Origin: Amoebophrya sp. A120
Lineage: Eukaryota > Protista > Dinoflagellata
NCBI GenBank assembly: GCA_905178155.1
Contig: CAJINV010000005.1
Location: forward strand, 4,381,556-4,445,555
Length of the DNA: 64,000 nt
Direction: 5' to 3'
Shown: piece after piece, positions 4,232 through 63,400 of the stretch
Layout of the letters: every line of letters starts with the position of its first letter
How positions within the stretch are numbered: position 1 is the first letter of the stretch
Position numbers and translations under genes: made by a program
Notes under the pieces: generated by a model
The model's database searches: none
What the model saw: only the letters and a program-made list of their open reading frames with translations
Told to the model about the DNA's origin: nothing

Positions 4232-6281
4232 ATGAGTTCCTGCCGTCTCACCAACGAGCTCGACGGGAAGATGCTTCCGTATGTTTGCTTTGGTCGCATT
4301 GCCGACGCTCGGATTCTTTCTTCCGCCGGAGAATCCACTCCAGAAATCGCGCATACCTTCACGAAGCTGCTGACTGCAGCAAGGTAAGAGCGTTTTTGCA
4401 TCTTGCGGCCCCTCCTTGACACTATCAACAAAAGTCTTGGTTACAACACACCGCGGCTCGTAATTATATGTTTGCCACCTGTTGTTCACTTTTACTTTTT
4501 CGTTATCCGAAATAAACCTCGGTTCTTCATTTTTTTTCATCAGGTCCAAGATGAGCCCGGGGACGCGGATGCGGCTCCAGTGGAGCGGCGGTCTCGTTAT
4601 CCTGAGTAAAAACGTCCCCACACCATAGTTGTCATGCAGATTCGCAATGACAGGAACATTTGTAATGCGCATCTCCATGAGAGGCATTTCCAAGCGCGTT
4701 TGGGAATTTGTAATGCTGTAAACGGGATGAGCAGATGGATTTGTGACGCGACTGCACTTTCTAAACTGCACTACAATAGTACGGGCTGGAAGTTGTCATG
4801 CGTTGCTCCCAAAGCTCCTGGGTTTGTCTTGCTAAGTTCCCAACTTGACTATGGGGTGGGGACGTTTTTACATAGGATACTCGTGTGCTGCTTGCTAGAC
4901 GAGGAGGGGCAACTGCTGTACTCGCTCTATCAAATGCAAAAATGTCTGGGTCAGGAAGAATCCAAGTTTGTCATGCTTGTCTCGCATGACTCGAGAATCT
5001 GTGTTGCATAGGCACGAAAAGGCCCTCTTACCTGTCATGCAAAAACGCAGTTTGCCATGCGGAATACGTAAGACATGGCAGCTAAGAAATTTGTCATGCA
5101 TAGCTGCGTATTGCAGTGCGTCTATCATTCACTTTTAGCATTACACCCAGACATATTTGCATTTGATACGCTCGTAACGAGGTCGATTGCGTACCCAGAG
5201 GCACAGTCCTCAAAACTGCTGGAAGACCTGCAGGGCTTCGTACGAGCGGAGTTGGCGAAGAGTCCCGGGTTTTTGCACCAGCTCCTAGCCGAGGATGTTC
5301 CTTCGCCGGGTAGTTCTTCGACTGCAGCGTCTGCGCGCGGTACGGCCAGACCGAGTACTTCTACAGATGCCGCATCCAACACCTTAACCGGCACTGCAAC
5401 ATCAAGCGACAGCGTTCCGGGGGAGGAGGAGAGGGGAGCCACTGCTGCCGTGTTGTCGGGGGAGCCAGAAAGATCCAAGAAGTTGTGTTCTCCCAGGTCA
5501 GCGCCGTCCACAGCGGGTTCTACTTCGGAGGAACGGCAACCGACTTCATGGATGAAGGCCGAGACTTCCACACCATCAACTACAACAAGTTTCGGGGTAG
5601 TTAATACTCCACCACCGCCGCTGTCAGTTTGCACAGGAGACAGCGCGAAAAATGCCACTGGCACAAACCGACCCGCGGGTGGAGGTCCGACAGTATCTCA
5701 GAGCCGTATGCGGCGCCACATGCAGGCGCTGCTCCTGCAGTACGAGAACCCCGTGGAGGCGGCCCGAGTGTCGCGGCTGTTCGCAAAATCGGAGGAACTT
5801 CGGGAGACGACGCGGAACAGTATCAAAACCGTCGTTCGCAACGCGAACCAGATGCACGCCCTGGAAATTCGGTCCCGCGAGATGGAAGAAGCGTCGCAGT
5901 TCTTGGAGCAGCACGCAGTGAAGGTCAAGAAGAAATTCTGGTAAGTACGTGAAATATAACAACTGGGTTGCTTGATTCTCATTTTTTTGGATTCATTTTT
6001 CCGCCGGGATTATTACGTGGAAAGAACCAAAGCAAGAGCATCCTACATTTGACTCTAAAGCGCTTTGCTCAAGTAAGTTAGTAGTACCTTTAGAAGTTGT
6101 ACAATTCAATCTAATGAAAAGGTGGAAGAACAAGGCGATGCTGTTTGCGGGCGGTGCGGTTGTGTCCCTCTGCGCCATTCTGTTATTTTTCCACTTCGTT
6201 TACCCGCTTCTGCCAGCTTTCTTTCCAAACCAGCAGCCGGTCAGCAACGAGGCCGGTGAGGCACCAGCGGCAAGTGCATGA
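4232..6281 (+). CDS. Longin-domain R-SNARE (VAMP7/synaptobrevin-like), about 391 aa
   Basis: Exons 4232-4383, 4544-4597, 4885-4927, 5174-5940, 6122-6281 join in frame; SNARE coil ending KKKFWWKNK followed by a C-terminal TM helix; two GT-AG introns and two TIR elements. Confidence 0.8.
4598..4879. mobile_element. TIR introner-like element, family B (282 bp), TSD CTCGT
   Basis: TATCCTGAGTAAAAACGTCCCCAC...GTGGGGACGTTTTTACATAGGATA; CTCGT at 4593-4597 and 4880-4884. Confidence 0.93.
4928..5168. mobile_element. TIR introner-like element, family A (241 bp), TSD CGCTC
   Basis: TATCAAATGCAAAAATGTCTGGGT...ACCCAGACATATTTGCATTTGATA; CGCTC at 4923-4927 and 5169-5173. Confidence 0.93.
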
Positions 6282-13428: not shown

Positions 13429-16400
13429 ATGACGTACTACCCGCTTGTCTCGATTATTGGCTGTTCTCTCTTTGTCGCCCTCGTGCGGCTTGTGCACTTT
13501 CAGTCGCGCCCCGGGGACCGCGCGATCCACTGCTTGGATCGCAGTAAATCACCCCCAGTAGAAGGTCCTGCACAAGCTGTCGCGAATGCACTTCCCCCGA
13601 ACGAACCACAGCCGGCGGACGGCACGACAGCGCCAAATGTTGGCGAGCCACCTCCTGCAACACCCTCCGCGACTGCTGCAACCGCATCAGTTGCGTCACC
13701 TACGAGCAGCACGCCAGAGCCACCGGCTACTACAGCGAACTCAGGGAGTAGAAGCACAAATTGGTGGCCCTGGTCGGCAGATTCATCGAAAGCCAGTACT
13801 AGTGACAACAGCAAGCAAGAAAATCCGGATACAATAAATAAAGTTGATGGTGGTTCCTCGAAGCCAGGGCAGGTGCCGGTCGCCTCGCTGCCGGACTACC
13901 ACAGTGTCGTCACCGATACAGGTTTCTGCCGCAATAGCGCCTGCTGCATCGGCAGTCTGGAATCGGACAAGGGGACGCGGCCGTCGACCATGCAGGGAAA
14001 GTGCCTAGACGTCGAACAGTGCGCCGCGAATGCCCGGCCTTTGATCGAGGGCCTGCGGCGGCCCCGGCGCTACGCCTTCGTATTGAGCTTCTTCGGGCAG
14101 GTGCCGCAGGAGCTGGACTTTTTGCAGCAGCTTCCGAGCATCCAGCGCGCCATCGGGCGCATGCAAAGCCAGAAGCCGGGGGCTGTCACGGTGGACGTTG
14201 TCCTGCTGATTCACCCGGGCCGGCAGATTGCCGCGCACTACAATCCGCTGGACAAAACGGCGATAAAGCACCTGCAGGCAAAGCACAACGTGAAGGTCCG
14301 ACGCGTGCCCTGGACCATTCCCCCGGGCGCCCGCTTTGACCGGGGCAACGAAGGGTGGTGCGGCGAACAGGATTTCATCCGCCTGCACGCCTGGAACATG
14401 ACGGACTACGATGCGGTCGCCTATTACGACAACGACGTCGAGCTCCGCGGCGACTATCTGCCGCTGTTTGAGTGCGTGGACGGCCTGGATGTGACTCTTA
14501 CCACGACTGGCGGCGTGGGCGAGCCCATCAACGTCGGGTTTTTCGCGCTGAAACCGAAGGCGAAGCTACTGGAGGCCGCCGTCCACTTCTCAAAGGTCGC
14601 GGGGTTCGAACCCAAGCGAGGCGGCTGGGCCGACGCAGGGTTCTGGCCGAACCAGTACTACTTCATCGGGGCGGAGTGCGGCCAGGGCTACTGGCTCACC
14701 ATGCTGTTCCGGCGAGACCATACCGTCGTGCGCGAGGCGTACCGAAAGGCCGGGCTGCCGCTAACCGCGGTGCGGGCGGCGTCCATCGATCGCTGTGTGT
14801 GGAACTACCAGCTCTCTTCCGGGTGCGACGCCATTGGCGGCGCGAGGTGCGACAAGGTCATCGGGCACCACAAGCCCGCCCGGGCCGGGTCCGACGACAA
14901 CGAGTGTTTGAAGAAGGGAATTCAACAGTTGTACCGGGAAGACGGGGTGGAAGGTCTTGTAGTCTCAAGACCTGCTGTTCTTGCGGCGATGAATACGACA
15001 GCTTCACTTAGTACCCCCGCGATGTTACAGTTGAAGGACTTCCTGCCCGCAAAGTATCTCCCAAGCGAGAAGCTTGCAGAGACTACGCAGCCGGACGCCT
15101 CTGCGGCCGTGTCGCTCGCAAACCTGAAAGAGTTTCTGTCGCTGGGTCCGCTTCCGCAGCGACTCCCGTGGCCGGGACAGTGGAAGAACGGGCTGCCCAT
15201 CCAGTGCAAGCAGCCGGACTGGCTGGTCCGCAAAGATTTGCTGTCGCTCGACGTGAACCCGCACAAGACCAGTCGGCGAGTGCGTGCGGTGCTCGTGGTG
15301 AGCGTGATAACGCCGAAGGGCCAGGAGGATTGGGGCGCGGCGGAGAAGCGGCCGCCGTTCCTGCTCACAATGCTCGCGGCGTCGCTGCAGCACCTGCGAC
15401 GTTTCGGCCATGGCCTGATCCTGCGGCCGGACTTCACCCCGCAGCTGGACGGCACCCACTTGCAGGCCTGGCAAAAGAAAGCCTGCGACCGGGAGAAAAA
15501 GGACGAACGGCAGTGCATGAAGGACATGCAGCGGGAGAACTTCAACTGGGAAAAGCATTTGATGCTGAACGACTACCTGCAGTTGAAGTTCGGGTCATCT
15601 GGTACTCCACCGGGTACTAGCGGGGACGAGGACTCGCAGAGGTTGTATCGGTTTACGCACGTGGGCATGCTGGACGCGGACGCCGCCTTCGTCAACTTTC
15701 ACCTGGACTCGCTCGGGATTCTCGCTTGGAATTTAGCGAAGACAAAAAAGCAGGTGTTCGTCGGGAACGAAGATTGGTTGCGGGGGGAGAGCGAAGGCGC
15801 GCTGCTTTCGCACGCGAAGCGCGCCAACGGCGGCCTGATTTTCGCCGCGAACTCCAAGTTTTCGCGCAGCCTGTTCACCGATACCTTCCAGGCTCACGTC
15901 CGCGGGAACGAACGCACCTCGACCCCCTGGACAACGGGCGGCATCTATCAAAATGAAAAATCCCCCCTCCCCATATCAAAACGGAAATTTGTGATGCTGA
16001 TTTGTGACCACAAATCCGCTTTGTATTGCACAGAGGCACTGCGGCCAGATCCCCAGGCTACGTAGGGGCGTATGGGTCTAGTAGTTCAGCATGGCAAGCG
16101 GGTCACTTTTAGGGCGAACAGCATGACAAATCGCTTCCATAATGGGGCGGAAGCTTCTGCCCTTGTCTTCTTGCAAGACAGATGCGATTTGTGACCTCAA
16201 ATCCGCAACGCAAATTTTTGGAAACATACCTTTTTAATATGGGGAGGGGGGATTTTTCCTCTCAATAGCATCGTGGCGCAATGTTCGTCCAACGAGCAGA
16301 TCTGTTTGAGCGACTTGATGTACGGGCCCCCGCGGACGCAGGCCGGGGCGATTTTCCCCATGCACCGGTATTTTCTCCTCGGATCGGGGAAGTTTTGGAA

Positions 16401-19575: not shown

Positions 19576-21226
19576 ATGGCACACGTCGAGCGCATATCAA
19601 ATGTAAAAATGTCTGGGTCTGGAAGAATGCAACTTGTCATGCTAAATCTGAAGCATTGAAAAATCTGTGTTGCATGATTGCCAAAAGTGGTCCAGTTTTG
19701 ACCAAGTCGGGAGGGAGTTTCTCATGCAGGGTAGGCATGAGAGAGATCGCGCAGAATCTGTCATGCTAGGTCCTGCATTCCAGACCTCGTGTGTCATGGA
19801 AAAGCTGCATGACAAATCTGACAATCTTCCAGACCCAGACATTTTTACAATCCATAGCGCAAGAAGCGACCGCTAGATGAGCATCTGGTGACGCTTCTCC
19901 AGACCGCAGACCCGCCGACGCGCGAGGAATACGCAGTCAAGAAGGTCGAGCTCGCACGAAAAATGGACCGGTTAGAATTCGTGTCCAAGGCCCGGATGAA
20001 GTTCATCAAGAATCTGCACGAGAACAACGAAAAGAAAGTGGACGCCATCCTGTGCCGACCACCGGGAAAACTTGCGGAAGTACTTACTACAACACCCTCC
20101 GTCGATGGGTTTACTTTGTTTTTTTTTTGTACGTGAGCTGCGCTCCTGGGTATTAATTAGTTGGTACATCCTTCTCGATGAAGAGCAGAAGCCTGTGTTT
20201 CGCTGCAGGCTCTGAGCGTTGCAACAGATGAATTCATTGGAGTACTATAGCTATCGAGTCAAAATGAAAATCGTTTTCCAGGTGTCTAAGCAGGGACTTG
20301 TGCAGGCGGACGCTTTATTTGAGACGCTGAAGCAGGATGCGCTGAAGAAGAAGTCGATTCCAAAACGGCTGGATATCGTCCACAATTACTGCGTCCATCT
20401 GGAAGTGCAGCAGAGCAGAGGTATTTCGTCCACTTGCGGTTTTGAATTTCCTGCAGTCACTATTATAGACGAGTTCGTTTTGCATCGTACAACATGCAAG
20501 GGAACTACTTATCGTGTTTCTGTTTGAGTATGACTACACGATAACTAAGAATTTCCTGGATCAAGAAAAATACATCAAGAGGACCAAAGCACCCCTTGTT
20601 AGAAGAAATGCAAACGAATGACGAAGCGAATGCAGTAAAACCACGCGACCACAACAGGCATGCAAACGCCGGATCAAATGGATCCCTTGCCATCGCCGGA
20701 GTTGTTTCAGGACATCAATTTTATGGACATGAATCCCACCTACACCGACTTGTTGAACAACGAACCCTCGCCGTTTAAGCCGGCGGATGGAGCCACGCGC
20801 GACCCGCTCCTCGCCGTCTGCTTGCTCCTATGAGAGTGAGTGTACTACAACTCCCCCTCCCCCTCTGTCATGCGAAAACGCAATTCCATTTCCAGCCACT
20901 GCCTCACATCGCTATCTTGCATAACGGACTTGGGAATCCAAACAGTACTATAATAGTTCGCACGCATTGTAATATAGTGATTTGTCATGCAGATGCCACT
21001 TTTCTGAGTCTGACCTGATCTCTATTGCTGTTCTTGGCTCCTTCAAATGAGGGGGAGAGGGAGTTGTGCTCACTGATAGCTCCAGCCGTACACGCCGCCA
21101 CCGCAAATCGTCGAGGCGCAGCAGCGGGCAAAAGCACGCGCGGTCGAGCAAGTGGCCGAGCAGAAGCGCATCGAGAAACTACTCGCGCGCAAGGAGAAGG
21201 AGCGGTTCGCGGCCCTAACTGCGTGA
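19576..21226 (+). CDS. Hypothetical helical protein, multi-exon
   Basis: MAHVER|KKRPLDEHL after removing the family A element; three GT-AG introns; AVCLL|QPYTPPPQ...FAALTA* after removing the family E element. Confidence 0.55.
19595..19856. mobile_element. TIR introner-like element, family A (262 bp), TSD GCGCA
   Basis: TATCAAATGTAAAAATGTCTGGGTCTGGAAG...CTTCCAGACCCAGACATTTTTACAATCCATA; GCGCA at 19590-19594 and 19857-19861. Confidence 0.93.
20829..21078. mobile_element. TIR introner-like element, family E (250 bp), TSD GCTCC
   Basis: TATGAGAGTGAGTGTACTACAACTCCCCCTCCCCCTC...GAGGGGGAGAGGGAGTTGTGCTCACTGATA (TIR with an indel); GCTCC at 20824-20828 and 21079-21083. Confidence 0.85.
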
Positions 21227-21938
21227 AGCAGGACGTTAGTTGTATATATTCTCTAGTTGATGTTGAGACGAGGAATCTATATGTAGTTTAATTGAGTTTG
21301 AGTAAGTTAGAAGTAGAAGAGCTCCAACCCAGTATGTGTGCCCAGGTCATTTCGCACAGCCCCTCGCATCCCATTCATTGCTGAGATCCTGTTACAAATT
21401 TCTACAAAAAAACTGTACCCCATTTTTTGTTGTTAGAAATGTTGGATCCCTAAATCATACGGACATTAAAGTGAGACGTGCTTTTTCCGCGACAACCCAC
21501 GAGGCTCTACTTCTCTCGGATTTTCCCTTTTTACACTAAACCAGTTCCCTTTTAAAACGAGTCAAAAATAATTTGCATCTGCACTGAGGCAAGTATCTCA
21601 GCAAGTGCAGGCATCAGTCATTTGCATTTTTAAGCGAGTCACGTGTAAGCATTCGGGATTTTGGGGACTCCCACAGCGGAGGTCAATGCAGTGCCATCAA
21701 AAAAGAAGGACTTTGTCATGCTACATAAGCATCAACTCGAACGGATCTGAAAACCTTGTACACCAGTTTGTCAAATGTCATGGTAAAGCATCAACACACG
21801 AGCAGCGCAGACCACGCCTGTAAGGAGGCACAGATGCCAAAGGATCTACGCATGTCGAAATTGGGCACGAGATGACGAAAACAGCTTATGAATGTTGTTC
21901 GACATCGTTCCGATTAGGTAGCACAATAAATCGGTCAA

Positions 21939-22160
21939 GATCCAGCTTCTCGCGTTCGTCGCAAGAACTCAGTGTAGTAGCAAGCAAAAATACCTCCATC
22001 CCTCTACCTGATCCAATCAGAAGTATATCGAGATCACCATTTTCTTGAAACGCTGTACGTCTGCCCAGCGCATCAAGCAGATCTTGATAAAGCAAAAGGC
22101 GATCTGACAAGATTGAGTTCTCGATCCACAGCAAATCTTGTTAGCTCTTCACCAAGGATC
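21939..22160. promoter_or_regulatory. Intergenic GATC cluster upstream of NOG1 (function unknown)
   Basis: GATC at 21939, 22010, 22032, 22080, 22101, 22123, 22157. Confidence 0.3.
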
Positions 22161-22492
22161 GTCGAGGCCAATAGATGACGTATCAAATTGCTCTAGGGCG
22201 ATGTAGACAAGCCAAATTATCGAATGCTCACCGACCTAAAAATGGTTTTTTTGAATATCACAAGCCTCTGCTTTTATCAAAAAACAGAAAGGACAGACTG
22301 CAGTCCGGCACTGGTCAGTAGTAAGAAAGAAAAGCGTAAACACTTATTTGCACCGCATTCAGCCACTGCCGCTCTAGTCTTTACGTTTGTCGAAAGTTCA
22401 GCTGTTGCGTAGAAAATAAAGAACTAGCCGGAAAATAAATTCTAGTTGCCTTTGTTCTTTCACTTATTTTTATCTAGAATTGATACAGCAAC

Positions 22493-25400
22493 ATGTATAA
22501 GTTCAAGGAGATCCAGACGGTCCCGCCAGCGGACGCGATGATTGACATCATCCTCTCCAAAACGAACCGGAAAACACCGACGGTGGTGCACCCGGGCTAC
22601 AAGATTTCGCGGATTCGGAATTTCTACTTGCGCAAAATCAAGTTTTGCCAGTCGGCGTACGCGGAAAAGTTCCAGGATATCCTGTGCAAAAATATCGTAC
22701 TCGTAGTGATCGCAATTATGCATTACAAATCTACTTGATAAGGTAAATGCGCATTACAAATTCAATTTGTAATGCTGAGCCAATTTGTATTGCGATTTAT
22801 ACTAGTACGATACTTTTGCAATGCATACAGGACATGCTCTCGCAATTTCCGCGGTTGGACGACATTCACCCCTTCTACGCAGATTTGTGCAATGTGTTGT
22901 ACGACCGAGACCACTACAAACTCGCGCTGGGGCAAATTTCCACCACGAAAAACATCATCGACAACTGCGCGAAGGACTACGTGCGCATGATGAAGTTCGC
23001 CGACTCTCTGTATCGGTGCAAGATGCTCAAGCGCGCCGCGTTGGGACGCATGTGCACCGCGGTCAAGAAGTTGGGGCCGAGCTTGAAGTACCTCGAGGAG
23101 GTCCGACAGCACCTCAGCCGCCTGCCAAGTACGTTTTTTGTTCATCTTCTACAGCCGATCTTCGTCGTTCTACAGGGCCTTGGTTTATTGTTCAACTGCG
23201 TTCTACTCGTCTTGTCGCTCTGATGTTACAACTTACTACTGCGCATAAAGATAAAAAGATTTTTTTCGCGTAGAAGAAATCGAAGGAAATTATCTTCGTG
23301 CGTGCTCCCTAGCAAGGAATCTTGATGGTTCTACTTCTTCTCTTCACAGGTATCAATCCCACGACACGCACCCTGATTCTTACCGGGTTCCCGAACGTCG
23401 GAAAAAGTTCTTTCATGAACACGGTGACAAATGCCAACGTGGATGTGCAGCCTTACGCGTTCACCACCAAGTCTCTATTCCTCGGCCACATGGACTACAG
23501 GTAGATACGATCTATGTATAGTTATTGATGCGGGGCTGATGAGAATAGATGAAAAACAAAAAGAAAAACTACCGGTGCAGCGTATCCAGTGGCACTTCTT
23601 TCTTTGCACTACTAGTAGTTGTATCTATGCAGACAGTCCGCCTTGGTGACTGTGCCCATTGCTAGTAATATTTTTCCATGATCGAAAAATAATAAATGAA
23701 ATCACAGATACACCCGGTGGCAAGTGATCGACACGCCGGGGATTTTGGACCACGCTTTGGAATATCAAATGCAAAAATGTCTGGGTCTGGAAGGATGCCA
23801 GATTTGTCATGCAGGATTTCCATGACCCATGAGGCCTGGAATGCGGGACCTAGCATGACAAACTCTGTGAGGTCTTTGTCATGCCTACACTGCATGAGAA
23901 ATCCCCGCCCAACTTGGCCGAAACTGGGCAGCTTTTGGCACTCATGCAACACAGATTTTTGCATGATCCAGATTTAGCATGACAAGTTGCAATGTTCCAG
24001 ACCCAGACATTTTTGCAATTCATATGGAAGAGCGGAACACGATCGAAATGCAAGCGGTGACTGCTCTGGCGCACATTCCGGCGACCATCCTCTACTTCAT
24101 GGATATCTCTGAAACGTATACCTTTATTCTGGCTTCTTGATGTAGTAGTTTTTGTGCTTCTGAGGATGATGTTTTTGCGATTCTCTACTAATTTTGCTGT
24201 GCAGGAGCTTTCCTTGCTGTAGTCCATATGCTATTCATATCGCGAAGAAATCGCAAACTGAATTTAATACCTTAACATCACAGCTGCGGACGCAATTTGC
24301 GTGAGCAAGTGAACCTGTTCAACTCACTGAAGCCGCTTTTCCGGGGAAAGCCACTGCTGATCATCGTGAACAAGATTGATTTGCGAAAAATGGACGACTT
24401 GCAGCCGGAAGAAAAGGCGCTGCTCGAATCCATGACGAAGGACATGGAGAACGAAGTCACGGTATAATTTTTTCTTTGTTGTCGAAAAAGAAAAACGGAG
24501 ATTAAATGCGCTGGATTATTGAACATGTTCGCTGATGTACTTAGCAGACACTCCAAAAATCGATGCAAATCTGGGTGTCCGTGGCTTGCGACTGATTTTC
24601 CGGCGTCAGGCAAAGATCAGGTTCACTAGCCGCGTTTCGTGCACAAGAAACTTTCGCGAAGATGATATTAGATAAAGTAGTCTTAAGCGTAATTACTTAT
24701 ATTCACCGTCTTGTACTGAAACTGAAAACAGCTTTTTCCGGTGTCCGTGCAGCAGAAGGAGGGTGTTGACGCTGTGCGAACGAAAGCGTGCGACTTGCTG
24801 CTTTCCCGCCGGATCGACAGCAAGATCAACAGCAGCAAGGTAGACGCCATCAAGAACCGGATCTTCATCGCGGAACCCACGAATCCGAGCATTGCCAGCA
24901 AGCGGCCCCCGTGCATTCCGGAAAGCGTGGTCTTGCAGCAACAGCAGCAGGCCAGCGCAAGCAGTAGCAGCAGTAGCGCCGGCACGACCCAAGCGACGAG
25001 TGCAGAAGGGACGAAGAGGGTCTTGGAGAAGGATCTGCAGGAGGAACACGGCGGTGCGGGTGTCTACGTGGCGGACTGGAACAAGGAGTGGCAGCTGTCC
25101 AACAGTAATTGGAAGTACGACGAGATTCCGGAAATTATGGACGGCATGAACGTCGCGGACTTTATCGACACCAACATTTTGGAAAAGCTGGCGAAGCTCG
25201 AGGAGGAGGAGCGCGCGGAGCTGTTGGCCGAGGGCCTGGAGGACACGGAGCAGGTGTTGAAGTCCTGGCAGGACTGCGAAAAGGAGATCGGGCTGATGCA
25301 CCGGGCGATCAAGGCCAAACAGAACGCGAACCGCGATCGCAAGGCCCGCAACGCCATGGGAACAGGGGGCATTGAACGCAAGCGAAACAAGTCGTTGAAG

Positions 25401-26144
25401 GAAGTCGTCGAGCGCTTGGAGAAGCGAACGATCGGCGAGGAGAAGCCGGTTAACGTGGAGAAATTACGAGGTCGGTCCAAGGTGCGCAAGCGCCTGAATC
25501 GCGACGAGGAAGAGACCGGGGGCAAGAAGCGAAAGGCGGTATACGCTACTTCTATATGCTTGTCGCAATCAATTTCTTCGATTCAGAAATAAAACCTTTT
25601 TATGGAATCTTTTCACCATTTTCACGAGCAAAAGAACCTTCTCGTCTAGCTGGACTTGTTCCTAGCGGTGGATTCGCATTTGATTGCTGCACCAGCGATC
25701 ATCTAAGTAGAACAGCGCGGCCTCGGCTTACTACATTGTGCCGGTGATGTTATTGCACAAATTCCTCGATTCAACATCACAATGTCAACATGATAATCAA
25801 ACTTCTCTGCTCAACAGGACGACGGTACGGCTATGGACGTGGACAACGACAAGAAATCGGCGAAGAGAACGTCGAAATCGCTCATGCGCTCAAGAACAGC
25901 GGGGCGCTCCAAGTCTGTCAAGGTCCGGGGTCTCTCCGTGCACACGGATCGCAGCCAGAGCCGGATCGCCACCAGTATCGGGCGGCCCGAACTGCAGGAG
26001 AAGGCGGAGAAGGAAAAGCGAAAGGCGGGGAAGGTGCGCAACAAAGAGGCAAGAAAGGGCGAGGGCGACCGGCACATTCCGGACTTCAAGCCGAAGCACT
26101 TGTTTACGGGAAAACGAAGTATCGGCAAAACCGATCGGCGCTGA
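22493..26144 (+). CDS. NOG1: Nucleolar GTP-binding protein 1 (60S biogenesis GTPase)
   Basis: [68 protein letters not shown]|[13 protein letters not shown], and C-terminal [17 protein letters not shown]; five GT-AG introns and two TIR elements. Confidence 0.96.
22678..22827. mobile_element. TIR introner-like element, family F (150 bp), TSD CAGGA
   Basis: TATCCTGTGCAAAAATATCGTACT...AGTACGATACTTTTGCAATGCATA; CAGGA at 22673-22677 and 22828-22832. Confidence 0.9.
23763..24024. mobile_element. TIR introner-like element, family A (262 bp), TSD TGGAA
   Basis: TATCAAATGCAAAAATGTCTGGGTCTGGAA...TTCCAGACCCAGACATTTTTGCAATTCATA; TGGAA at 23758-23762 and 24025-24029; reverse-orientation relative of 19595-19856. 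Confidence 0.95.
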
Positions 26145-27124
26145 GAGACTTTTTTATGCTCATGATCAAGATATCGTTATTGTCCCTGCAACGGCCGTGG
26201 TTTTTTGTCGCTACATTCAGGCATTTTTTAGTCTCGCTTCGCAGGCTATGGCTACGTGAAAAATGTGATTGAAGAAAAACGTGGTGATATTCGCGGTATA
26301 GGAAAGTGCATTATTTCACGAAATTCGTCAGGCGGTCTTGGGCTTTCGCTTTGAGAGCGCTTTTTCTGCGCTATGCGCTTTGTGAGAGATGCACGAATTA
26401 TGCAACTTTGTTCGTACTCACTTAGTTTCGGTGTTGAGCTTTTTCTCGCCACTTCCGTTCCATCTGCTGTGCGTGCATTCGCATTACTTATGCTGCAATC
26501 GTATACATGAAATCTTGCTGTCCACCTCGTCGTCGTATAAATTGGCTCGTCCCCCCTGGCTCTTCGTTCCTGTGACACGTAGCGCTATCCCTAATGCAAA
26601 GGTCGTCGGTGATATATTCCTTCCTTGTTTTTTGGCATTCCACGTTTCCCGTTTCGGCTTTTTTTACCCTTCCTCGGTACGTGCCTCAGTTTGTTTTGAT
26701 CGTGCAAGGATTATTTGTATACGCAGACAGGAACTACAAGCTGCGCTTTCGTTCTATAGGCAGGCTTCAGCTTTTCGTTGTCGTAATGCCATGTGCGCAA
26801 GTTCTTTCGTCAACTGTAACTGACTTGAATGCATACCAGAAGTTGATGTCCGATATATTTTCCCAGGCTCTCGTCATCCTTTGATGAGTTGATCCCACGC
26901 ACTACCCGCACACCTCGGAACTGATAGTTTAAATAACTGTCAAGAATAGGAGGAGCAAGTTCCACAGCTTCCTTGAGAACATAGCGCACACGACCATCGT
27001 TTCTAGTTGTAGTCAGCCTTGAAGAGTTGGAGTTCATTCCTTCGCCTGTAGGATTGCGAGCGCAACTGTATCTCTTGTTTATTGCGGTCTTCTTGTACAT
27101 TAGCTTTTTTCGTGAACAAGCAGG

Positions 27125-28701
27125 ATGTCGACCAGTCAAGTTGGACTGCCGTACAAAGGCCGGTCCCTGGCAGTGAGCTCCACGGTTCGCAGAGCGCCGA
27201 AGTTTTCCTTCGGCTCCGCTACTTCAGGACTGACCAAGCTGCTCGCAAAAAGCGCCGCAGACGTCCCAGGGCCTGGCGCTTATGAGCCTGAAGGGTCACG
27301 CGACGGCCGCAAGAGGACAGCACAGGCGTACGCTATACTTTAAATTCATAATATTTTTGCTGGGGGGCATCTTCACGTGCCCAAATACTTATATTCTCTC
27401 TGCAGTTTTCAGACCTGCTATGCTTTTGTTTGTGACACAATCGATTGCTTCCTTGTGTGCCTCGATGAAATTCAATTTCAAATCCATTTTTCGGTTAAGC
27501 AGAGAAAACCAAACAATCAAAATCGAGTTTGCGTGTTTTCCTCCTCATCACAGGTTTTCCTTCCGCCCGAAACCACGCTCATTGCAGTCGAACACAAACG
27601 CCGTTGTTGGTCCGGGCAGCTACGACCCCAGCGATAAGCTTTCGAAACCAGCATCAAGGTATAACTTATGTGTAAAAGAAACACAAACACGACATAGGCC
27701 GGAAAGTTAAAATTTTTGCTTCCACTCTCTCGTGAAGATGTGAAGAATGAAGTAAAGAGTTTGCTGCAAGAGCCCCGGCACTTTAATGAAAATATGATGA
27801 AAAATTTATTACAGTCGCGGCGGCTTTTCGCATGCGCGGCGGTCCGCGGGACCGTCATCCTTCAAGAGCTTCCAGCCCGGTCCTGGAGCGTACGATACGC
27901 GCGCAGACATGACAAAGCAAGGGCTGCAGTTCAGCTTTCGGCGTAAACCTGCCGCTATGGATCCAACACGAGGCACGCCTGGACCAGGTGCCTACGAGGC
28001 GCCGGCATCCGCAGCCTCCAATTCGTATCTAGAAAATTATGTTTTTCGATTTGATTTTCATTTTAGCGTTCCACCGGACCACGAACAACACTGCTCATTC
28101 AGTACAGCATTTTATTTTTCTTTGCAACTTTGACTTTTGTTCATTTTGCTATACACCAATGAATGCCTTTCTACACCAACTCAGCGCGACGGCAAGGTCG
28201 GTGCATGGGATCGCGAAGCACTCCAGCCGAGCAGTGAAGTTTTCCGGGAGCCAGCGGAATCTAGCGCCCTTCCGCAACGAGAACCCGGGTCCAGGTGCGT
28301 ATGACCACGCGGCTGGCACCTCAGTCAGCGCGAGACAACCCCCAGCCTATTCGATCCGCGGGGGCGGACGGCCAAAACTCATACGCATCGCAAATATGTC
28401 TGGGTCTGGCAAGCTGTGTTGCTGAATGGTCATGATTGAGTGCCGCGCCTCTAAGTGCAGCGACGCATGACAAATCTCTCGAACGCTTCCTAATGCGTAG
28501 TGCGCACTACAAACTGCGATCTTGTATGACGAAAGAGTGGCACTCTTGCTGCATATGCGCAGCACAGATGTTTCACGAATGCAAGACACACAATACAGGC
28601 ACAACCTTTCCAGACCCAGACATATTTGCATTTGATAACTCAAGCGGCCTGACAATCCGGGACCCGGTGCGTACGATGCAGCGTACACGCAGTTCTCGTG
28701 A
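27125..28701 (+). CDS. SHIPPO-1/ODF3-like PGP-repeat axonemal protein
   Basis: Repeated PGPGAY/GPGSY motifs with FSF across several GT-AG-separated exons; PKL|KRPDNPGPGAYD after element removal. Confidence 0.8.
28382..28637. mobile_element. TIR introner-like element, family A (256 bp), TSD ACTCA, TAC left end
   Basis: TACGCATCGCAAATATGTCTGGGTCTGG...CCAGACCCAGACATATTTGCATTTGATA; ACTCA at 28377-28381 and 28638-28642. Confidence 0.9.
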
Positions 28702-34573: not shown

Positions 34574-37485
34574 ATGGCCTCTGCTGCGAGCAGCTTGCCG
34601 CCGGAGGCGGTGTCCGACGCCGGGATTGTGTTGATAAAGATGCGAAACCTGGTGTACTCCACAAGAAGTATCGGGTACCGCGCGATCCGGCACGCTATCG
34701 CGAAGACGAGGGGGGCCGAGTTTCTGACCGTGAAAGAAGCCGACGAGTGCTTCCGCAGCGCCTCGGTGTTTTTGGACAACCGGGAGTTGTGCACGCTGTC
34801 CCGAAAGTACGGCGACGGTTCCTTTGTGGACAAGAAGCTTTCCCTGGGAACGGAATTCTGTGGCGACCTGATCCCGACCGAGATCAGCAGCGCCCCAAGA
34901 AGAGGCTTGGTGCAGAACGTGTGGAAGAGCTGCTGTGCGGCGTTCGGTAGCGACCAAATCGACCTGCTCGACTTCGTGGAGGCCACAAACCCCGGCGCTT
35001 TCCCGCACGTGAAGGCGGGGCGCGTCTCGCACGAGGAGTGCAAACAGCTACTGCTGTCGGAGCTCGAGGACCTCATGCTCATGCTCGGAAAGTCAGCGGT
35101 ATTTTCGTCTTCTGGATCATTTATTATCATGGATGGTAGGCCTAGGCGTAGGAGAGAGCACTTACAAAAGACAACTCAGGTCACTTTCAAATCCGATTCT
35201 ATTTGCTTTCGACTAAGTAGTAGAACCTGGGGACTAGGTTACTTACTGTGTAAAAATCATTGGCAATGATGAACTAATATCAAGGTGGACGCGGAAGTGT
35301 TCATGCAGTATGGCACGGAAGTCTCGTCGCTGTGCGCGCTCGATGGACAGTTTCAGAACGTGATGGGCATGTTTTCGAAGAAAACAGCTTTGAAAGACGA
35401 CACGCTCGACCGACAGCTCGCGTTGGTGGACCTCTTCGTCAGGAAATTCAACGAGATGAAGGACCACCGAGCAGTATTTATGCTGTTTCACTACTACGAC
35501 CCGGCCGGCAGAATGGCGCTGGACTACCCGTCCTTCGAAGCGATGTGCATCGGAATCGGCGTCAACATCACACCGGCCGAGAAAAGACTTATCTTCGACT
35601 TCTTCGGACCCACTGGAGTTATAGTGGTATGAAGTTTACTAGTTAGTTTTGCTTTTTTTTCTGTGCACAGCTTTTTCCATGAATGCTAGGCACGCTACAG
35701 GTCAGCATTTACTAGATCTGGATCGTGCTGCCTGTTGGAACAGGTATTTTATCGTTTCAAAATAAAACAAACACATAATTTTTCTGCAGAGCGGTCCGTT
35801 TTTGCGATACATCTTCTACTGCATGGAGTATGCAAGCGTCGAACTTGGCAGACCTGCGGACTACGCTGAGATTAGGGCCAGCGGACCCGCGGCACACGAT
35901 CCCGACGCGGAACCACGGGAGCTGTGTGCCAAGATCCGAAATCACCTGATTAAATTCCATCCGCGGGGGCTGTCAGTGGTACAATGTCGTTGTCGCCTAC
36001 TTTTGAAAAGTAAACATGACAGTTTTAATATTACCACGTTCCACTTCCAGCTGGAAAAGGAAAGGATAAGAAAGAAGTTTTGTCACGTTACAGGAAAAAT
36101 AAATCTCGGCTCTTGATGATTCTATCACCTTCTCAGGCCTTCAACATTATGCACACGTTGAACCGAGTTGGAAGCAAGATTGACAAGCGGGAGTTTCAGT
36201 GGGGCCTGGACGTTTGCGGCCTTCGCCTAGGTACCGCGGAAGCGGACTACCTGGAGTACTTTTTTTCGTCCGGCACGCCACAGGTCGACAAAGAAGAATG
36301 GCTCGACTACTTGCGCGGCGATCTCGTCGCCTACGAAGAACTGAAAGCGGAAGCAAAAAAGAGAATAGACCAGGTAGAGCGTTTGATAATTTAGGACGTA
36401 CTTCTACTTTACTTCTTTTGTAGTTTGATGAAAAACTGCAAGTGAGCAACGATTGCGTCGTGAAAGAAAACTTGTACTTCTTCGCTCATCCAGATTTTGC
36501 AACAGGTAGCAAATAATGCGTGCTTACGTCTTGGAAGATTTGGGGAATTTGCAAACTGTCTCTAGGTGTGCCCCGGCGAAAATGAGTACCACAATGAGGA
36601 CTACAAGATGAAGAAGTGGGAGCCCGCTTTTGGGGGCAGCAGCTTCGTGGCGGCGCAATTTATTCTCGATCAGTACTGCGTGGACCACCATCCGATGGTT
36701 GACGACGTCGGTCCGGAGAAGCTGCGGAAAGAGTTCTTCGACTACCTCGGCGAATCCCTGGCCATCGGCCGGGCGGCAAAAGCCAAGGTGGTCAAATACC
36801 TGTGTGACGAGGGGCTGCAACACGACAGGCAGAAGTGGCGCAAGTACTTGTACACGTGTCTGCCCTCCTATGGAAGTGTCAGAATCGAAATTGACAAAAT
36901 CGAAATAATTTGTCATGCATAAAATGGCTTCCAGTTCGAACCCAGTTTCTAACTGGCGCATGACAAATTCTGGTGGTGCCTAAATCCAGTCTGTAATGCT
37001 GTTTAAGCAAAGAAGGGCGATTCTCTCATGCTACTGTAGCAGCTCGAGATACAACCCCAAGCAGGCTTATAATCGGTCTCACTTGCCTGCTCTGCAACAC
37101 ACGCATTCCGCGTCATGCATTTTATGCATCACAAATTTGTCGAGCTTGTCAATTTCGATCCTGACAGTTCCATACCTCCAGAAACCCGTCCGAAAACGTG
37201 GTCCCCGGAGAGGAGTTATCAAATGCAAAAATGTCTGGGTCTGGAAGAATGCAACTTGTGATGCTGCATTTGGATTCCAGAAAAATCTGTATTGCATGAG
37301 TACCAAAAGGAATGCAATTTTTGCTACGCGGAGAGGGCATTTGTCATGCGGAATAGGCATCAAGAAGCTCTCAAAAAATCTGTGATGCTAGGGCATGCAT
37401 CACAGACATCAGGGCTCGTGCAAAACGTGCATGACAAGTGTCAGAACCTTCCAGACCCAGACATTTTTACAGTTGATAGGAGTGA
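34574..37485 (+). CDS. Calcyphosin-like multi-EF-hand protein, multi-exon
   Basis: NPGAFPHVKAGRVS, YYDPAGRMALDYPSF, IDKREFQWGL...VDKEEWLDYLRG; the stop TGA forms only after removing 37217-37483. Confidence 0.65.
36869..37174. mobile_element. TIR introner-like element, family C (306 bp), TSD CCTCC
   Basis: TATGGAAGTGTCAGAATCGAAATTGACAA...TTGTCAATTTCGATCCTGACAGTTCCATA; CCTCC at 36864-36868 and 37175-37179; colinear with 7173-7480. Confidence 0.93.
37217..37478. mobile_element. TIR introner-like element, family A (262 bp), TSD GGAGT
   Basis: TATCAAATGCAAAAATGTCTGGGTCTGGAAG...CTTCCAGACCCAGACATTTTTACAGTTGATA; GGAGT at 37212-37216 and 37479-37483. Confidence 0.93.
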
Positions 37486-55559: not shown

Positions 55560-57756
55560 ATGTCCGCCGCGCCGTCAGTCCGAGGGGCCCTTCTAGCCTT
55601 GATATCCTGAGTAAAAACGTCCCCACACCAGAGTCAAGTTGGGGATTTTGCAACACAAACCTTGAAGTTTTGGAAGCCACGCATGACAAATTGCAGGCTG
55701 TATTGTAGTGCAGTTTAGTAAGGGAAGTCGCATTACAAATCCATCTGCTTATCCTGTTTACAGCATTACAAGTTCCAAAACACGAGCGGGAATGCCTATC
55801 ATGGGGATGCGCGTTACAAGTCTTCCTGTCTTTGCAAATCTGCATTACAACTCTGGCGTGGGACCGTTTTTACTCAGGATACTTGAATGTGTTGATCTAT
55901 CTCGTTCTGTACCGGCTGAAGCAGTCTGAAATATCAAAGTGAAAAAAGCCCCCACCCCATATCGGAAACCGAAGATGCGCGAATTTGTGATGCTGTATTT
56001 GAGTACACAAATCGACTTGTATTGCTAGAAGGCCAAGAGACGAAGCTGCGGCCTAAATTGCAGGCAATCTGTCTTGCTGTTTCCCAATTCCAGTTGCCTC
56101 CTGTCATCCTGGAGCTGCAAGGCTTTCCCACGCTGGACAGCACTACTGTCCGCATCTTTTGCCTTCTAGCATCACAAAGCTGATTTGTGACCACAAACCT
56201 GCATCACAGATTTCCGTTTTGATATGGGGAGGGGGCATTTTTCATTGTAATATGAAACGAACCTGGTGTTGTGCACCCTAGAAACGCCGAAAGGGGCCGC
56301 GGCCAGTATCTCATCTGCCGGCGGCGGTGCTGCGGTTGGTACCGCGACTGCAGGGACACCACCTGCAACAAATATTAGTACTACAACAAAGAGTAGTACT
56401 CTGGCTGCAGTTCATCTTCCAGCAGAGAGCACGAAGGCGCCGGCGATCGGAGGTGCAGCTGCGCCCACTTTAATAGAGCAAGAAAAGAATGCAGCTCTGC
56501 AAGAAGCTACAACAACGACAGCAGCACCGGCGGTTGCCGCAGGAATTCCACTTCGAGACGCGGCGACAGCTGCACCGCGGTTCAACATTACTTTTTCACA
56601 GGCGTCGAAGGAGTTCGTGCCATGTACGCGCGCGTCGCAGAGTCAAAGCTCGCGGCCCGGCACGCCGTGCATGCCGCCCGCGAAGCGCTACCCCTACAAA
56701 AGCTGGACGCCGTGGCGTGCGGAGCTCGGGGAACGCATTCTCGCCGCGGTCACGCCCGAGGGGGCTGAGGCGCTTGAGAAGAAGTGCAACGGGTGGACGT
56801 TGTTTGGAGACAGCACCTGGTGCAACAAAGCCGTGAAGCCGGAAAACTGGAGCGGAGTTCCAGGTACTGCAGTCGGCCTGTCTTTCGGGGTGGAGGAGCG
56901 GGATCTGTGGAGCGAAAAAATGAGTAATTGGTTCAAAGTCCCCCTGGTGCAGCTGTTCGATTGCTTCCAGGACCCCGGGAAGTCGCCGGCGCTGACGGGG
57001 CGGGCGAATCCGCCGGCGGACACGGGGGAGTGCAACGACAACGGACCGCACTGCTATTCCGGGCGGTACGAGGGCTACCAGGTCTGCCTTTCCGAACCGG
57101 CTAGGGATGCTATCACGAAGGTGAAGAAGATTGAGCCAGGGACTTCGCTGAACAGCACGGGCATCTACCAATTTGTGCAGGGCGACGAGTCGAGGGAGCT
57201 CGACAGGTGGCGACGGAACTACACGACCTTGTCGAACGTGCTGGAGCACTGGCGGCAGCGACCACCGGTCGCGGTGCCTACTAAAAGTGTTAATACTCCT
57301 GCAGTTGTTGAACAACCTTCTGCAGCCGCTGGGAAAAATGATTCGAATCCGCCGGGAAGCAAACCTAAGTTGTCGGTCTTTTTGAAGATTGATGTAGAGG
57401 GGTCCGAATGGGGTGTGTTAGAAAAACTTGCAGCGCCGGAACACGAGATGGATCGAAACTTGATTCGGACACTGGACATGGAGGTGCACTTCGGCAGCAA
57501 TACCGATCCGCGCAAGAAGGAGTTCGGCAATAATGCCAAGGGGGGCATCAGCTTCGAAGTGAGCATCCTGGAGCGGTTGAGGAAGTACTTTTATGTCACC
57601 GGCTCCACTCTCGAGGTGTATCGAGAAGGCTGGCACCCGGACAAGGACTGTCCACAGAGTAACTGCGATGAGCCGATGCTGCACTTGGCGGGGGGCATGG
57701 GCATGGCCGCCTTTGCAGTCAGCTACGTTAACAAAGCGCTCGTGGACGGAAGTTAA
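55560..57756 (+). CDS. Type II membrane SAM-dependent methyltransferase (FkbM/METTL24-like)
   Basis: The TM anchor GALLAL|NVLIYLVLY and SE|TNLVLC appear after removing two elements; LSFGVEE, FLKIDVEGSEWGVL, LDMEVH. Confidence 0.75.
55603..55881. mobile_element. TIR introner-like element, family B (279 bp), TSD CTTGA
   Basis: TATCCTGAGTAAAAACGTCCCCAC...GTGGGACCGTTTTTACTCAGGATA; CTTGA at 55598-55602 and 55882-55886. Confidence 0.94.
55932..56252. mobile_element. TIR introner-like element, family D (321 bp), TSD TGAAA
   Basis: TATCAAAGTGAAAAAAGCCCCCACCCCATATC...GATATGGGGAGGGGGCATTTTTCATTGTAATA; TGAAA at 55927-55931 and 56253-56257. Confidence 0.92.
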
Positions 57757-58314: not shown

Positions 58315-59628
58315 ATGGCGCTCCACAACAAGAATAAGATGCGGTTCGAATTCGTGTACCGAGGCGCGAGCTCTGTTCTGGACCTGGACACGACAGAGTT
58401 CGTGATGGCGGCGACGTGTAACGCCGAGACGGACGCGGTATCAAATGTAAAAATGTCTGGGTCTGGAAGAGTGCAAGAGTTGTGATGCAGGTTTTCCGGG
58501 ACACACGAGGTCTGGAATGCGAGACCCAGCATGACAGATTCTTTGAGGTCTCTACCATGCCTTTCCTGCATGAGAAACTCCCCCGCAATACTTGGTCAAA
58601 AGCGGACAGCTTTTGGCACTCACGCAACACAGATTTTTGCATCATTCAGATTTAGGATGACAAGTTCTAATCTTCCAGACCCAGACACTTTTGCATTTGA
58701 TACGCGGCCACGGTCGACGACTTGGTGGCCTGTTTGGATGAGGAGCTGGAAAAGGGGTTCCAGCTGAAATCCACATATCAACCGCAAATATGTCTGGGTC
58801 TGGAAGGTTGGAACTTGTGACGCTAACTTTGGACTCTAAAAGAATCTCTATTGCATGACCAGCAAGAGGAGTCTAGTTTGTGCTACGCGGGGAGGCATTT
58901 GTCATGCGGCGTAGGCACCATCAGGAAGCCCTCTAAAAATCTGTGATGCTAGGTTGTGCATTACAGACATCCTGGGTCATGCAAAATATGCTGAGAAACC
59001 CGGCAACATTCCAGACCCAGACATTTCTGCATTTGATACCACACGGCTGACCACCAACAAAGATACGTCCGACGAGCGCATCTGGTTGGGTTTTTTCCCG
59101 GTGGCGGATCTGCTCGCTGCGGGTGGTCCGGTATTTGTGGATGTGGAGCAGGTTGCGCCCGGTAGTGGAGCTGCTGCGACCGGCTTTCCACGGTCGGCGG
59201 CGGCGCGTGCAACCCTGAATGAGGGTCGTGCGCCGCAGAACTGTCTTGACACCACGCCGGCGTCTTCCAAGCAAGTCCAGGCAGGAATGAACAACGATCA
59301 AGAAGGAAACGCCGAAGATCATCCGCGTGGAAAGAACAACTACAACACCGAGGTGAATGGCGACAAGAAACCGGCGCTGCCGACTTTTCTGCAGGAAATG
59401 GGAAAGCAAATGGCCGAAACGGTGCTGAAGCAGCAAAATGTTAAGGAAACTGTGCTGCCGCACTTACAAGACCTGGCGACGGGGGACCCCAGCAAGCTGC
59501 AGAACATGCTCGAGAATCACCCCATGCTGTCGCACCTGCGTGGCCAGCTGTCCGACCCGGACAAACTCCAAAAAATGCAGCAGCGCATGCAGGAACGGCT
59601 GCAAAGCCTGCAGGGCTCTGGGGCGTGA
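58315..59628 (+). CDS. Hypothetical protein with a C-terminal STI1/DP-like repeat
   Basis: ETDA|ATVDDLV...QLKST|RLTTN joins after removing two elements; DPSKLQNMLENHPML...DPDKLQKM. Confidence 0.6.
58439..58702. mobile_element. TIR introner-like element, family A (264 bp), TSD CGCGG
   Basis: TATCAAATGTAAAAATGTCTGGGTCTGGAAGA...TCTTCCAGACCCAGACACTTTTGCATTTGATA; CGCGG at 58434-58438 and 58703-58707. Confidence 0.94.
58776..59038. mobile_element. TIR introner-like element, family A (263 bp), TSD CCACA
   Basis: TATCAACCGCAAATATGTCTGGGTCTGGAA...TTCCAGACCCAGACATTTCTGCATTTGATA; CCACA at 58771-58775 and 59039-59043. Confidence 0.93.
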
Positions 59629-60473: not shown

Positions 60474-63400
60474 ATGAGATCATCGACCTCGTCGCTTTCA
60501 ACGCGGTCAACCGCCTCCTCGTCCGCTCGGGGAGCTGGAGGCACTAGTCGTATCAATAACTTTTTTGACGGGGATCGCGATCATCGTGTTGAAACGGCTG
60601 ACGCAAGATCCGACGGTGGGCTACACCTATCGGGGTCGAAATCCTCTTCCACAACATACCAGACTCGCACAGCTGATGTACAACTTTGCAAGACATACAC
60701 GGGGAATGATCATAGTACAAGAACCGGGTCGCCGTCGCTCACGCTTCTGGATATTGACGACGAGGAAATAGCGCAGCTGCAGCGCGACATTTTTTTCGGG
60801 AACGCAAGCAACGAAGCCCGGCCTCAGATTCGGCACCGTCTAAGCAGCGGCCATGCAGGCGCCCGAAAAACCGACCAGGAGGGGTACCGCACAGCGGGCA
60901 AGAAGGTTTATTCCGGAACCAGTCCGACGTCTCCGCTTAGCTCGAGTCCAACATCTCCCACGACCGCGACGACCGCGCCGAAGAGCTCTGGGGTCAGCGC
61001 GTCAACAAGTGCTGATCAAGAATGTTGGTTACTGGCGGAGCTTGTCGATGCCTCCGAGCACGCTTACTCTAATTCCAAATACACAGCACAGGAACTGGAA
61101 GTCATGCGTGGGCATATTCGACAGCAGCTCGCAAAGGACAGTGACGAGGACGAGGACTTGTGGAACTACGGTGCTTCCTCTGAGGCTGATACTAGTGCCG
61201 CTCTCTCGCGTGTGAAGCGGAAAAATGCACTGCTGATGCGAAAGAAAAAGGCACTGCGCTTCCGCTGCCTCTGCATCCTCGCCTACACCGGGTTTTTGTC
61301 GTTCCGCTGCGATCCCGTGTTCTCGCGGGAGATCACGGAGAGCACCTGGAAATTGCTTCTGATCACGGTGGAGTTGGCGAATGGCATCTTTTTCCTGTTG
61401 GACACACTGGTGGTGCGTCGGCTAATCTGGATGACATCACATCAAAACGATTTTTTGGTGGCGCACCAAGCAGGACGAGGTCGTATGTTTAATACAACTG
61501 CGCTGCCCGAGCCGAAACCGAATTCGGTTTTATTTCCTTGGATCTCCTGGCCGGAAGTCGTGGAAGTCTTGCTCCTCTTGGGCGCCACGCTGACGCAGTT
61601 GTTTTACCTCTTCGTTGCCACGCCCGCGACCAGCACGCGGAGCGACGCGTTTTTCCTCCAAGTGCTCGCTTTGCTGTGGCTCGTCCGCGTGCGCATCCCG
61701 ATCCAGGCACTGTTTTTCCAGAAGACCCAGGAGCAGAAGGAACTGCTGGCGTTTCGCGACTTTCTCAAGACGCTAACGGGCGGCCAAGGGGACGGGCAAT
61801 CGAATAGGAACAAAGGTAGCCCTCGCCCGAGAACAAGGACGTTGAAAAGTACGAGCACCTCCAAAGGACGAGGGCCGTCCTCGTTGGCGACGCGAGTTTC
61901 CTTGACGAAGATATTTTCCACGATTGTGTGGAGTTTTCTTCTGTTCGGCATTCTGTCGTACGTGCTGGCGCTCTACGTGGCCATGGAGTACAAGCAAAAC
62001 TACGAGGCATTCCAGCAGTACAGCAAGATGTCGGGGTGGAACTCAACGAAGCGGTTTGGCACGACGACGCGCAGCTTCGTGCAGTTGACGCGCGTGGCCT
62101 TCATGGATACCCGCGTTCTGCACGACGTGGTCCGGCACGCCCTGGGCTGCTACCCGTCCTTGGGGTACATCTTTCTGTTCCACTTTTTTCTCTGCGGGTT
62201 CGGTCTGTTGAATGTCATCCGAGCGTCCGTCGTCAGTTACGCCGGCGTAAAGACCGCCGTCGAGGAATTGGAAATGCGAAGCAGCCAGTTCGGAAACAAG
62301 CCCACCGACGCTAACAGCGGACACTTGCAGAAACTGGCCGAAATTTACGATGTTTTCAAGTTTGTCGCGGAGAAGAAGCTAACGCGGTTTGCGCTCCATT
62401 CAAGTGGTGGCACTTCTCTGGATGTGGACATGATCATTGACAGCAGTAGTTCATCTGAGGAACACCACTCGCTCTCGTCTTCAGCCTACGAAGCCCGTAT
62501 AAGAAGTCGGAACAAACAGACGGAGGCTGCCCGGCGACTCAGACACAGCAGTAGCAGTCGCGTGCTTCAGGCCTCGCGGATAGTTACGTCGTCTGCAGGT
62601 CGTGGCCCGGGCGCCTTTGCTCGGAGTAGATCCTCTCCTATCGGAGTGAAGGAAGTGGCAACTACTACGTCCTCTGGAGCAGCAGGAGCGTTCCAGGTCG
62701 CTGCGAGGTTAGCGGCAATTCCAGAGGAAGCGCGTCGGGAGTACGAGAAAGGTGCTGCTCGGTGCATCGGTGTGCGGAATGTCGTATCGAAAGGAAAAAT
62801 CCTCCCTCCCCATATCAAAACGGAATTTCTGATGCTGGATTTGCGTACACAAATCAGGTTTGTATTGCAGAGAGGCACTGCGGCCAGATCCCCAGGCTAG
62901 GTAGGGGCGTACGGGTCTAGTTGTTCAGCATGGCAAGCGGCTCACTTTTAGGCCCAACAGCATGACAAAGCGCTTCCATAATGAAGCGGAAGCTTCTGCC
63001 ATCGTCTTCTCGCAGAGGGGGGATTTTTCCTTTTGATATGTCGTTCCCATGCCACCAGACGTGAAAATTCAGATATGGCTTGCTCAGATGTTACAATCTC
63101 AAACGTTACAATAGAATCTGAAATTTGTGTTGCATGAACAGCATGAATACCAAAGAGAGACTTGGGCTTTTCGCAATACAAATTTCGGCAGATCTCCATG
63201 CGGTTTGGAGTTCCGAAACTTGTCATGCGCGCTCCTGTGGGAGTAGGCCAGATGTTGTGCATTTTGCAACACAAATTCTAGATTCTGTTGTAACGTTTGA
63301 GATTGTAACACCTGAGCAGGTTATATCAAAATCGCTTTCATTCTACCATCGGAGATGCCCCCTCTTGTGCGCGTCCCCGCGCGCAGCTGTTTGTGCGAAG

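Follow-up and report, generated by a model that had tools for sequence, protein, structure and literature searches.

Two introner elements with hairpin-forming ends in the NOG1 gene of Amoebophrya sp. A120 and their precise absence from transcript-like contigs

According to the available sections of the 2021 genome paper, more than 60% of the introns of Amoebophrya sp. A120 are non-canonical (Farhat et al. 2021, PMC7789003). The introner elements defined there have ends joined by an inverted repeat of 8-20 nt, consisting of TAT, seven less-conserved nucleotides and at least three A, and carry direct repeats of 3-5 nt over the exon/intron borders (5 bp in the legend of Fig. S19). They number 29,850 copies in 1954 numbered families, and are depleted in translation and ribosomal genes. 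The same sections leave the position of the border undefined, call the splice motifs highly variable and report that a cognate transposase was not found in A120; an A120 family of elements with terminal inverted repeats (TIRs) and integrase-like frames is described in PMC12130899. As to the splicing machinery, they list U2, U4, U5, U6 and 83 of 89 spliceosomal proteins as found, and U1 and the minor spliceosome as not found. Later texts, in the parts available, repeat the 2021 account (PMC11282704, PMC12130899, PMC12005148, PMC11453091), and our literature search, with subscription papers outside its reach, found no mechanistic follow-up on the removal of A120 introners.

The window, that is, the whole stretch of 64,000 nt analyzed here, contains the NOG1 gene of Amoebophrya sp. 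A120. With exons taken from contig joints, its coding region on the plus strand (22493..26144; ATG at 22493, TGA at 26142-26144) comprises eight exons encoding 694 aa, and the spliced frame is identical to the A120 protein CAD7950847.1 (P0001; GSA120T00025223001). For a second gene of the window, too, the match to an A120 protein is 100%. A Pfam scan of the NOG1 exons recovered NOG1_N, MMR_HSR1, NOG1 and NOGCT in this order, with matches in six of the seven pieces scanned; the 18-aa fourth exon was left out of the scan and one part of the last exon gave no match. The protein is longer than most relatives among the matches listed (694 aa vs about 640-660), and a low-complexity Gln/Ser/Thr stretch is found at about 24935-25010 (about aa 385-410), N-terminal to the NOGCT domain.

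An earlier note on this DNA, made from the letters alone, had described NOG1 as interrupted twice and otherwise intact. The spliced frame is intact, but the interruptions are seven in number: in addition to the two elements on which the note was based, labelled F and A, the gene carries five ordinary GT-AG introns on the plus strand, at 23129..23349 (221 nt), 23501..23707 (207 nt), 24116..24283 (168 nt), 24462..24731 (270 nt) and 25539..25817 (279 nt). The donors of these introns read GTA in all five cases and GTAT in three.

Both elements lie where they had been placed, the end given for A (24029) including its second repeat; the letters F and A are family labels from that earlier reading and not the published family numbers. 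Element F (22678..22827, 150 nt, 33% GC) is flanked on the plus strand by two copies of the 5-nt direct repeat CAGGA (22673..22677 and 22828..22832), and element A (23763..24024, 262 nt) by two copies of TGGAA (23758..23762 and 24025..24029); no strand is assigned to the elements themselves. Each starts with TAT, ends with ATA and has inverted ends of the form TAT-N7-AAA that form a long stem, the arms being complementary over 16 of 20 nt in F and 18 of 20 nt in A. The RNA folds have z scores of -5.6 (F) and -9.8 (A), with none of 200 shuffles equally stable in either case, and an exact flanking 5-mer has a chance probability of about 0.001 per site; on account of both, F and A are not chance occurrences.

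Left unspliced, both elements lead to the premature stops that had been predicted: the frame ends after 81 aa if F is retained (TGA 22736-22738) and after 249 aa if A is retained (TGA 23823-23825). Together with one repeat A measures 267 nt and is in frame, yet contains a stop. In silico excision of either element together with one repeat rejoins a continuous NOG1 frame. No register gives GT...AG borders in F or in A. Among the six precise cut registers of each element, GA...AG is possible in one for F, while AG is absent from all six for A, which departs in this respect from the 5' G and 3' AG of canonical U2-type introns (GT/GC/GA-AG).

With TIRs, target duplication, non-coding sequence and many copies, F and A have the features of MITEs, and at 150 and 262 nt they are too short for a transposase. 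Copies of A are located elsewhere in the window at 19595-19856 (reversed, 85% alike) and 58439-58702 (83% alike). No close copy of F occurs in the window (best 48%); F is repeated in the genome, its end at 22827 continuing into other flanks in 47 and 51 contigs of two DNA-like runs. F and A are A120 introner elements and, as such, already known as a class published in 2021 (Farhat et al., PMC7789003) and in the gene model.

The earlier statement that both interruptions fall within conserved motifs holds for A and only loosely for F. Across 119 homologues, the stretch that A interrupts, directly after the G3 motif, is nearly invariant (L228 98%, E229 93%, R231 100% and N232 98% conserved; 114 of the 119 aligned there), whereas F falls on variable residues (Q61 8%, D62 3%), six residues upstream of the invariant F-P-x-x-D-D-x-H-P-F. 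Segment length is constant at the site of F in all 111 homologues spanning it and deviates at the site of A in 3 of 116. In yeast, the available text of PMC6968927 reports that a NOG1-disrupted strain survives on a plasmid copy and that a G3-motif mutant of NOG1 is dominant lethal; by analogy, we assume NOG1 to be essential in Amoebophrya as well. Because ribosomal and translation genes are reported to carry fewer introners (PMC7789003), the presence of two in NOG1 runs counter to the trend.

We regard it as very likely that F and A are removed at the RNA level. Contigs of run X3 contain seven joints, two for the elements and five for the ordinary introns, and their listed pieces match with no other letters. 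The F joint (22672>22828) skips 155 nt and the A joint (23757>24025) skips 267 nt, each with five ambiguous letters. Since the ordinary GT-AG introns are absent from these same contigs, the latter are taken as mRNA. Runs X4 and X6 contribute one contig each (2468 and 2458 nt), which among the joints listed has piece offsets or a length consistent with all seven cuts, 770 nt separating exon 1 from exon 7. The type of these three runs was guessed as RNA; they bear one sample label, come from one study and consist of contigs, which lose rare forms.

The inference of the earlier note that excision must be nucleotide-precise and efficient can be compared with these data. Precision is seen directly in the two joints. 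Efficiency is roughly supported by contig depth in X3, a poor measure of splicing efficiency: the spliced contig has a depth of 112.9, unbroken across the A joint, vs 3.62 for the contig inside A (23836-23958, identical), the only such contig among the matches listed. In the three raw RNA runs (X9-X11), no reads fall on NOG1 exons at 90% likeness; partial reads amount to 134, 3 and 2 in X9, X10 and X11, respectively, nearly all on the arm of family A. A separate observation concerns X9, in which 118 raw RNA reads join part of the family A arm (23940-24014) to one same foreign flank, an abundant transcript thus retaining an element fragment in a run without NOG1 reads. The public gene model CAD7950847.1 already omits both elements, and is probably not independent of the RNA contig data. 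A reading of A as a canonical in-frame GA/GC...AG intron, with 6, 12 or 18 nt more removed, is contradicted by the contig joint.

The contigs of runs X1 and X2, in contrast to those of X3, contain the ordinary GT-AG introns and are DNA-like. From the unique flanks they extend 24-27 nt into F and A, a distance below the 31-letter threshold for bridging, and their breaks are confined to the repeated arms (X1 contigs 19830-22704, 22803-23786 and 23998-28481). X1 depth at the locus is 41.7-44.4 vs 42.8-44.6 for neighbouring unique contigs, and one A120 NOG1 protein is present among the matches listed (120 of 5996). Within the limits of contig data, with copy number judged from contig depth and protein matches and with X1 and X2 possibly being the source reads of the window itself, the NOG1 locus is single-copy and its elements are present in the DNA.

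Scanning the window without any repeat requirement gave 22 pairs of TAT and ATA ends with an A-run in each arm; an exact 5-nt repeat flanks 16 of them, and the remaining six share one end with such a pair; a wider scan gave 57 arm pairs, many nested or due to chance. From these scans 23 elements were chosen by eye, three with degenerate and 20 with exact repeats, the latter being 20 different 5-mers. Together with one repeat each, the 23 elements account for 9.7% of the window. They interrupt long plus-strand frames, which are reopened by excision of element plus one repeat (for instance, at 15946 with 854+630 codons and at 62785 with 781+233). A GT/GC/GA...AG register is available for 2 of 22 elements on the plus strand and 4 of 22 on either strand. 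Family A is found in both orientations in plus-strand frames reopened by its removal (17545 reversed, 58439 forward, 58776 reversed).

Several further observations were made on this population. Of the 20 exact 5-nt repeats, 13 start with a pyrimidine and 14 end with a purine, which amounts to a weak, symmetric preference in the target. Close pairs of elements, 24-73 nt apart, leave micro-exons (gaps 1431-1454, 4880-4927, 37175-37216, 55882-55931, 58703-58775 and 63039-63073), and in DNA contigs of other genomic regions two element ends lie 5 letters apart, as if a second element had inserted beside the first. The coding region of an ion-transport-domain protein (PF00520, P0121; 241 aa, about 780-2265) carries three elements.

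Exact flanking repeats mask the true cut, while degenerate repeats reveal its position. Degenerate 5-mers flank the elements at 1205-1430 (2 of 5 letters matching), 1880-2101 (3 of 5) and 63074-63325 (4 of 5). In the A120 gene model P0121, 1205-1430 is excised with five additional bases, no more and no fewer, and registers -2 to 0 from TAT are the only ones to fit; 1880-2101, in the same model, rules out register -5. At 63074-63325 both forms of the repeat encode Gln in an open frame, so that the protein cannot fix the register. Judging from the P0121 elements, the upstream repeat is mostly retained as exon and repeat identity is seemingly unneeded. With a cut at -1, every chosen element would start N-TA(T/C), T-A at +2/+3 being true by construction since the elements were defined by TA(T). 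In the listed part of Table S4, T is in second place in 18 of 18 predominant non-canonical classes, and T is retained at +2 in the non-canonical classes listed for both strains (Farhat et al. 2021, PMC7789003), a bias that may stem from the aligner.

Taken as a weak hint, the pattern suggests cuts one base ahead of TAT and four bases beyond ATA, which would mimic the local GTA(T) donor. The hint comes from two sites in a single annotated protein, and the register pattern may be visible already in the figures of Farhat et al. (2021). As AG is missing from every register of A and the in-frame GA...AG of this element is unused, scanning for AG does not set the 3' end. A more speculative extension, which we put forward as somewhat doubtful, is that the splice-site variety of A120 comes down to one rule, by which the cuts are measured from the stem at -1 from TAT and +4 past ATA, with no need for G at +1, a terminal AG or a matching repeat. 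If true, with a spliceosome that no longer checks the two terminal bases every insertion would become a perfect intron, whatever its orientation and target, and the NOG1 pre-mRNA, in which five ordinary introns stand beside two hairpin introns, would be a ready test substrate.

The reading that we favour, at a probability of about 0.8, is that F and A are MITE-like introners that stay in the DNA and are removed from the pre-mRNA, likely by an adapted spliceosome, with ends likely set by the stem and not by GT-AG borders. Taken separately, definition of the ends by the stem is probable, whereas for catalysis by the spliceosome the odds are even. Insertion by a TIR-transposon route would have duplicated five target bases, after which the paired TAT...ATA stem would draw both exon ends together. 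The 5' cut might then fall one base before TAT, producing an N-TA(T) donor like the GTA(T) of the organism, and the 3' cut perhaps about 4 nt past the stem with no AG; an adapted spliceosome could read such a donor without its first G. Orientation independence would follow from the symmetry of the element ends. A missing 3' AG is hard to reconcile with standard spliceosome chemistry. F, taken alone, allows a GA...AG reading, which counts against the favoured explanation. It is the N-TA(T) starts set beside the GTA(T) donors, together with T in second place in the classes of Table S4, that favour an adapted spliceosome.

RNA-level removal could instead proceed without a spliceosome, through a structure-reading endonuclease acting at the stem base followed by an RNA ligase, an explanation that differs from the favoured one in the catalyst alone and to which we assign a real, though minority, chance. 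It fits the lack of a 3' AG in A and most elements, the strong stems and the use of both orientations, and agrees with the U1 not found in A120 (PMC7789003) and with the nonconventional introns of euglenids, described in the available text as having unconserved borders and an end-joining stem (PMC6221363). The N-TA(T) element ends, which resemble the local GTA(T) donor in either orientation, speak against it, as does the T kept at +2 in the non-canonical classes of both strains. Because this register case consists of two sites and a table that aligner bias may have shaped, the nuclease-ligase explanation stays close.

Template switching classically occurs where a hairpin is combined with a direct repeat. 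The joints might accordingly be skips of reverse transcriptase over hairpin and short repeats, the mRNA keeping the elements and the ribosome hopping between duplicated codons, which is conceivable in that any 5-nt repeat contains one whole codon in every frame; the RNA evidence here is cDNA-based, as is that of the 2021 paper in its available sections (PMC7789003). Our literature search on template switching at hairpins with direct repeats found nothing, and we consider this explanation highly improbable given the depths in X3 (112.9 for the spliced contig against 3.62 inside A among the matches listed, poor measure though depth is) and the clean removal, in the gene model, of an element with a repeat matching in only 2 of 5 letters. 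Excision at the DNA level during some life stage, as for ciliate IESs, with transcription of the cleaned gene, would agree with transposon-like ends and the exact loss of one target copy, and minor or stage-specific forms would be invisible in contigs. X1 and X2 contigs enter both elements at normal depth, unbranched at the would-be joints, and the joined form is absent from DNA as judged from contig paths among the joints listed, which makes this explanation slightly less probable still. We know of no separate somatic nucleus in this group, so that the excised form would be passed on to the offspring and the elements would disappear. The least probable explanation in our view is the one that the earlier note had named as its refuting case, namely a dead or minor locus with a second, uninterrupted NOG1 supplying the transcripts. 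The protein matches listed are 120 of 5996, which leaves some room for it, but the listed RNA-like pieces fit this locus with no other letters, including upstream of the ATG, and the frame is intact across 694 codons. An identical intronless copy would moreover double the exon depth and break the DNA contigs at exon ends, and neither is seen. Contig depth, the contigs themselves and the single A120 protein among the matches listed thus give a second NOG1 no support.

This locus adds one clean example to a published intron class. It is also a test case, being a single-copy conserved gene, essential in yeast, whose protein needs an AG-less intron removed to the base; because of this requirement, artefact explanations are unlikely. 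The proposal that NOG1 is a good internal control stands, and argues against the joints as a mere reverse-transcription artefact. Ordinary and hairpin introns can be compared within one NOG1 transcript, and the hint of a fixed register makes the cutting mechanism testable with existing A120 RNA-seq.

Three described systems resemble F and A. According to the available text, the MITE-derived introners of Micromonas and Aureococcus (PMC11282704, PMC7789003) are likewise non-autonomous TIR elements with target duplication, in which the insertion is the intron and the frame is restored; they differ in that one canonical splice site is their own and the other is supplied by the target duplication. 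Here, by contrast, none of the registers of A supplies an AG, and no 5-mer occurs twice among the 20 exact repeats of the window. In euglenids, as far as the accessible text goes (PMC6221363, PMC11282704), the nonconventional introns are alike by description in their unconserved borders, end-joining stem, target-duplication-like repeats and coexistence with GT-AG introns in the same gene; they belong to an unrelated lineage, and in their arms CAG/CTG is located a few bases in from the ends, vs TAT...ATA here. With the published A120 introners the two elements share the host, inverted ends, direct repeats, hairpin, non-GT-AG borders, removal in RNA-seq (here at the contig level) and a repeated, many-copy nature. 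There is no difference in kind; what the present window shows is an exact 5-nt repeat in 20 of 23 elements, and a few informative sites that fit one register.
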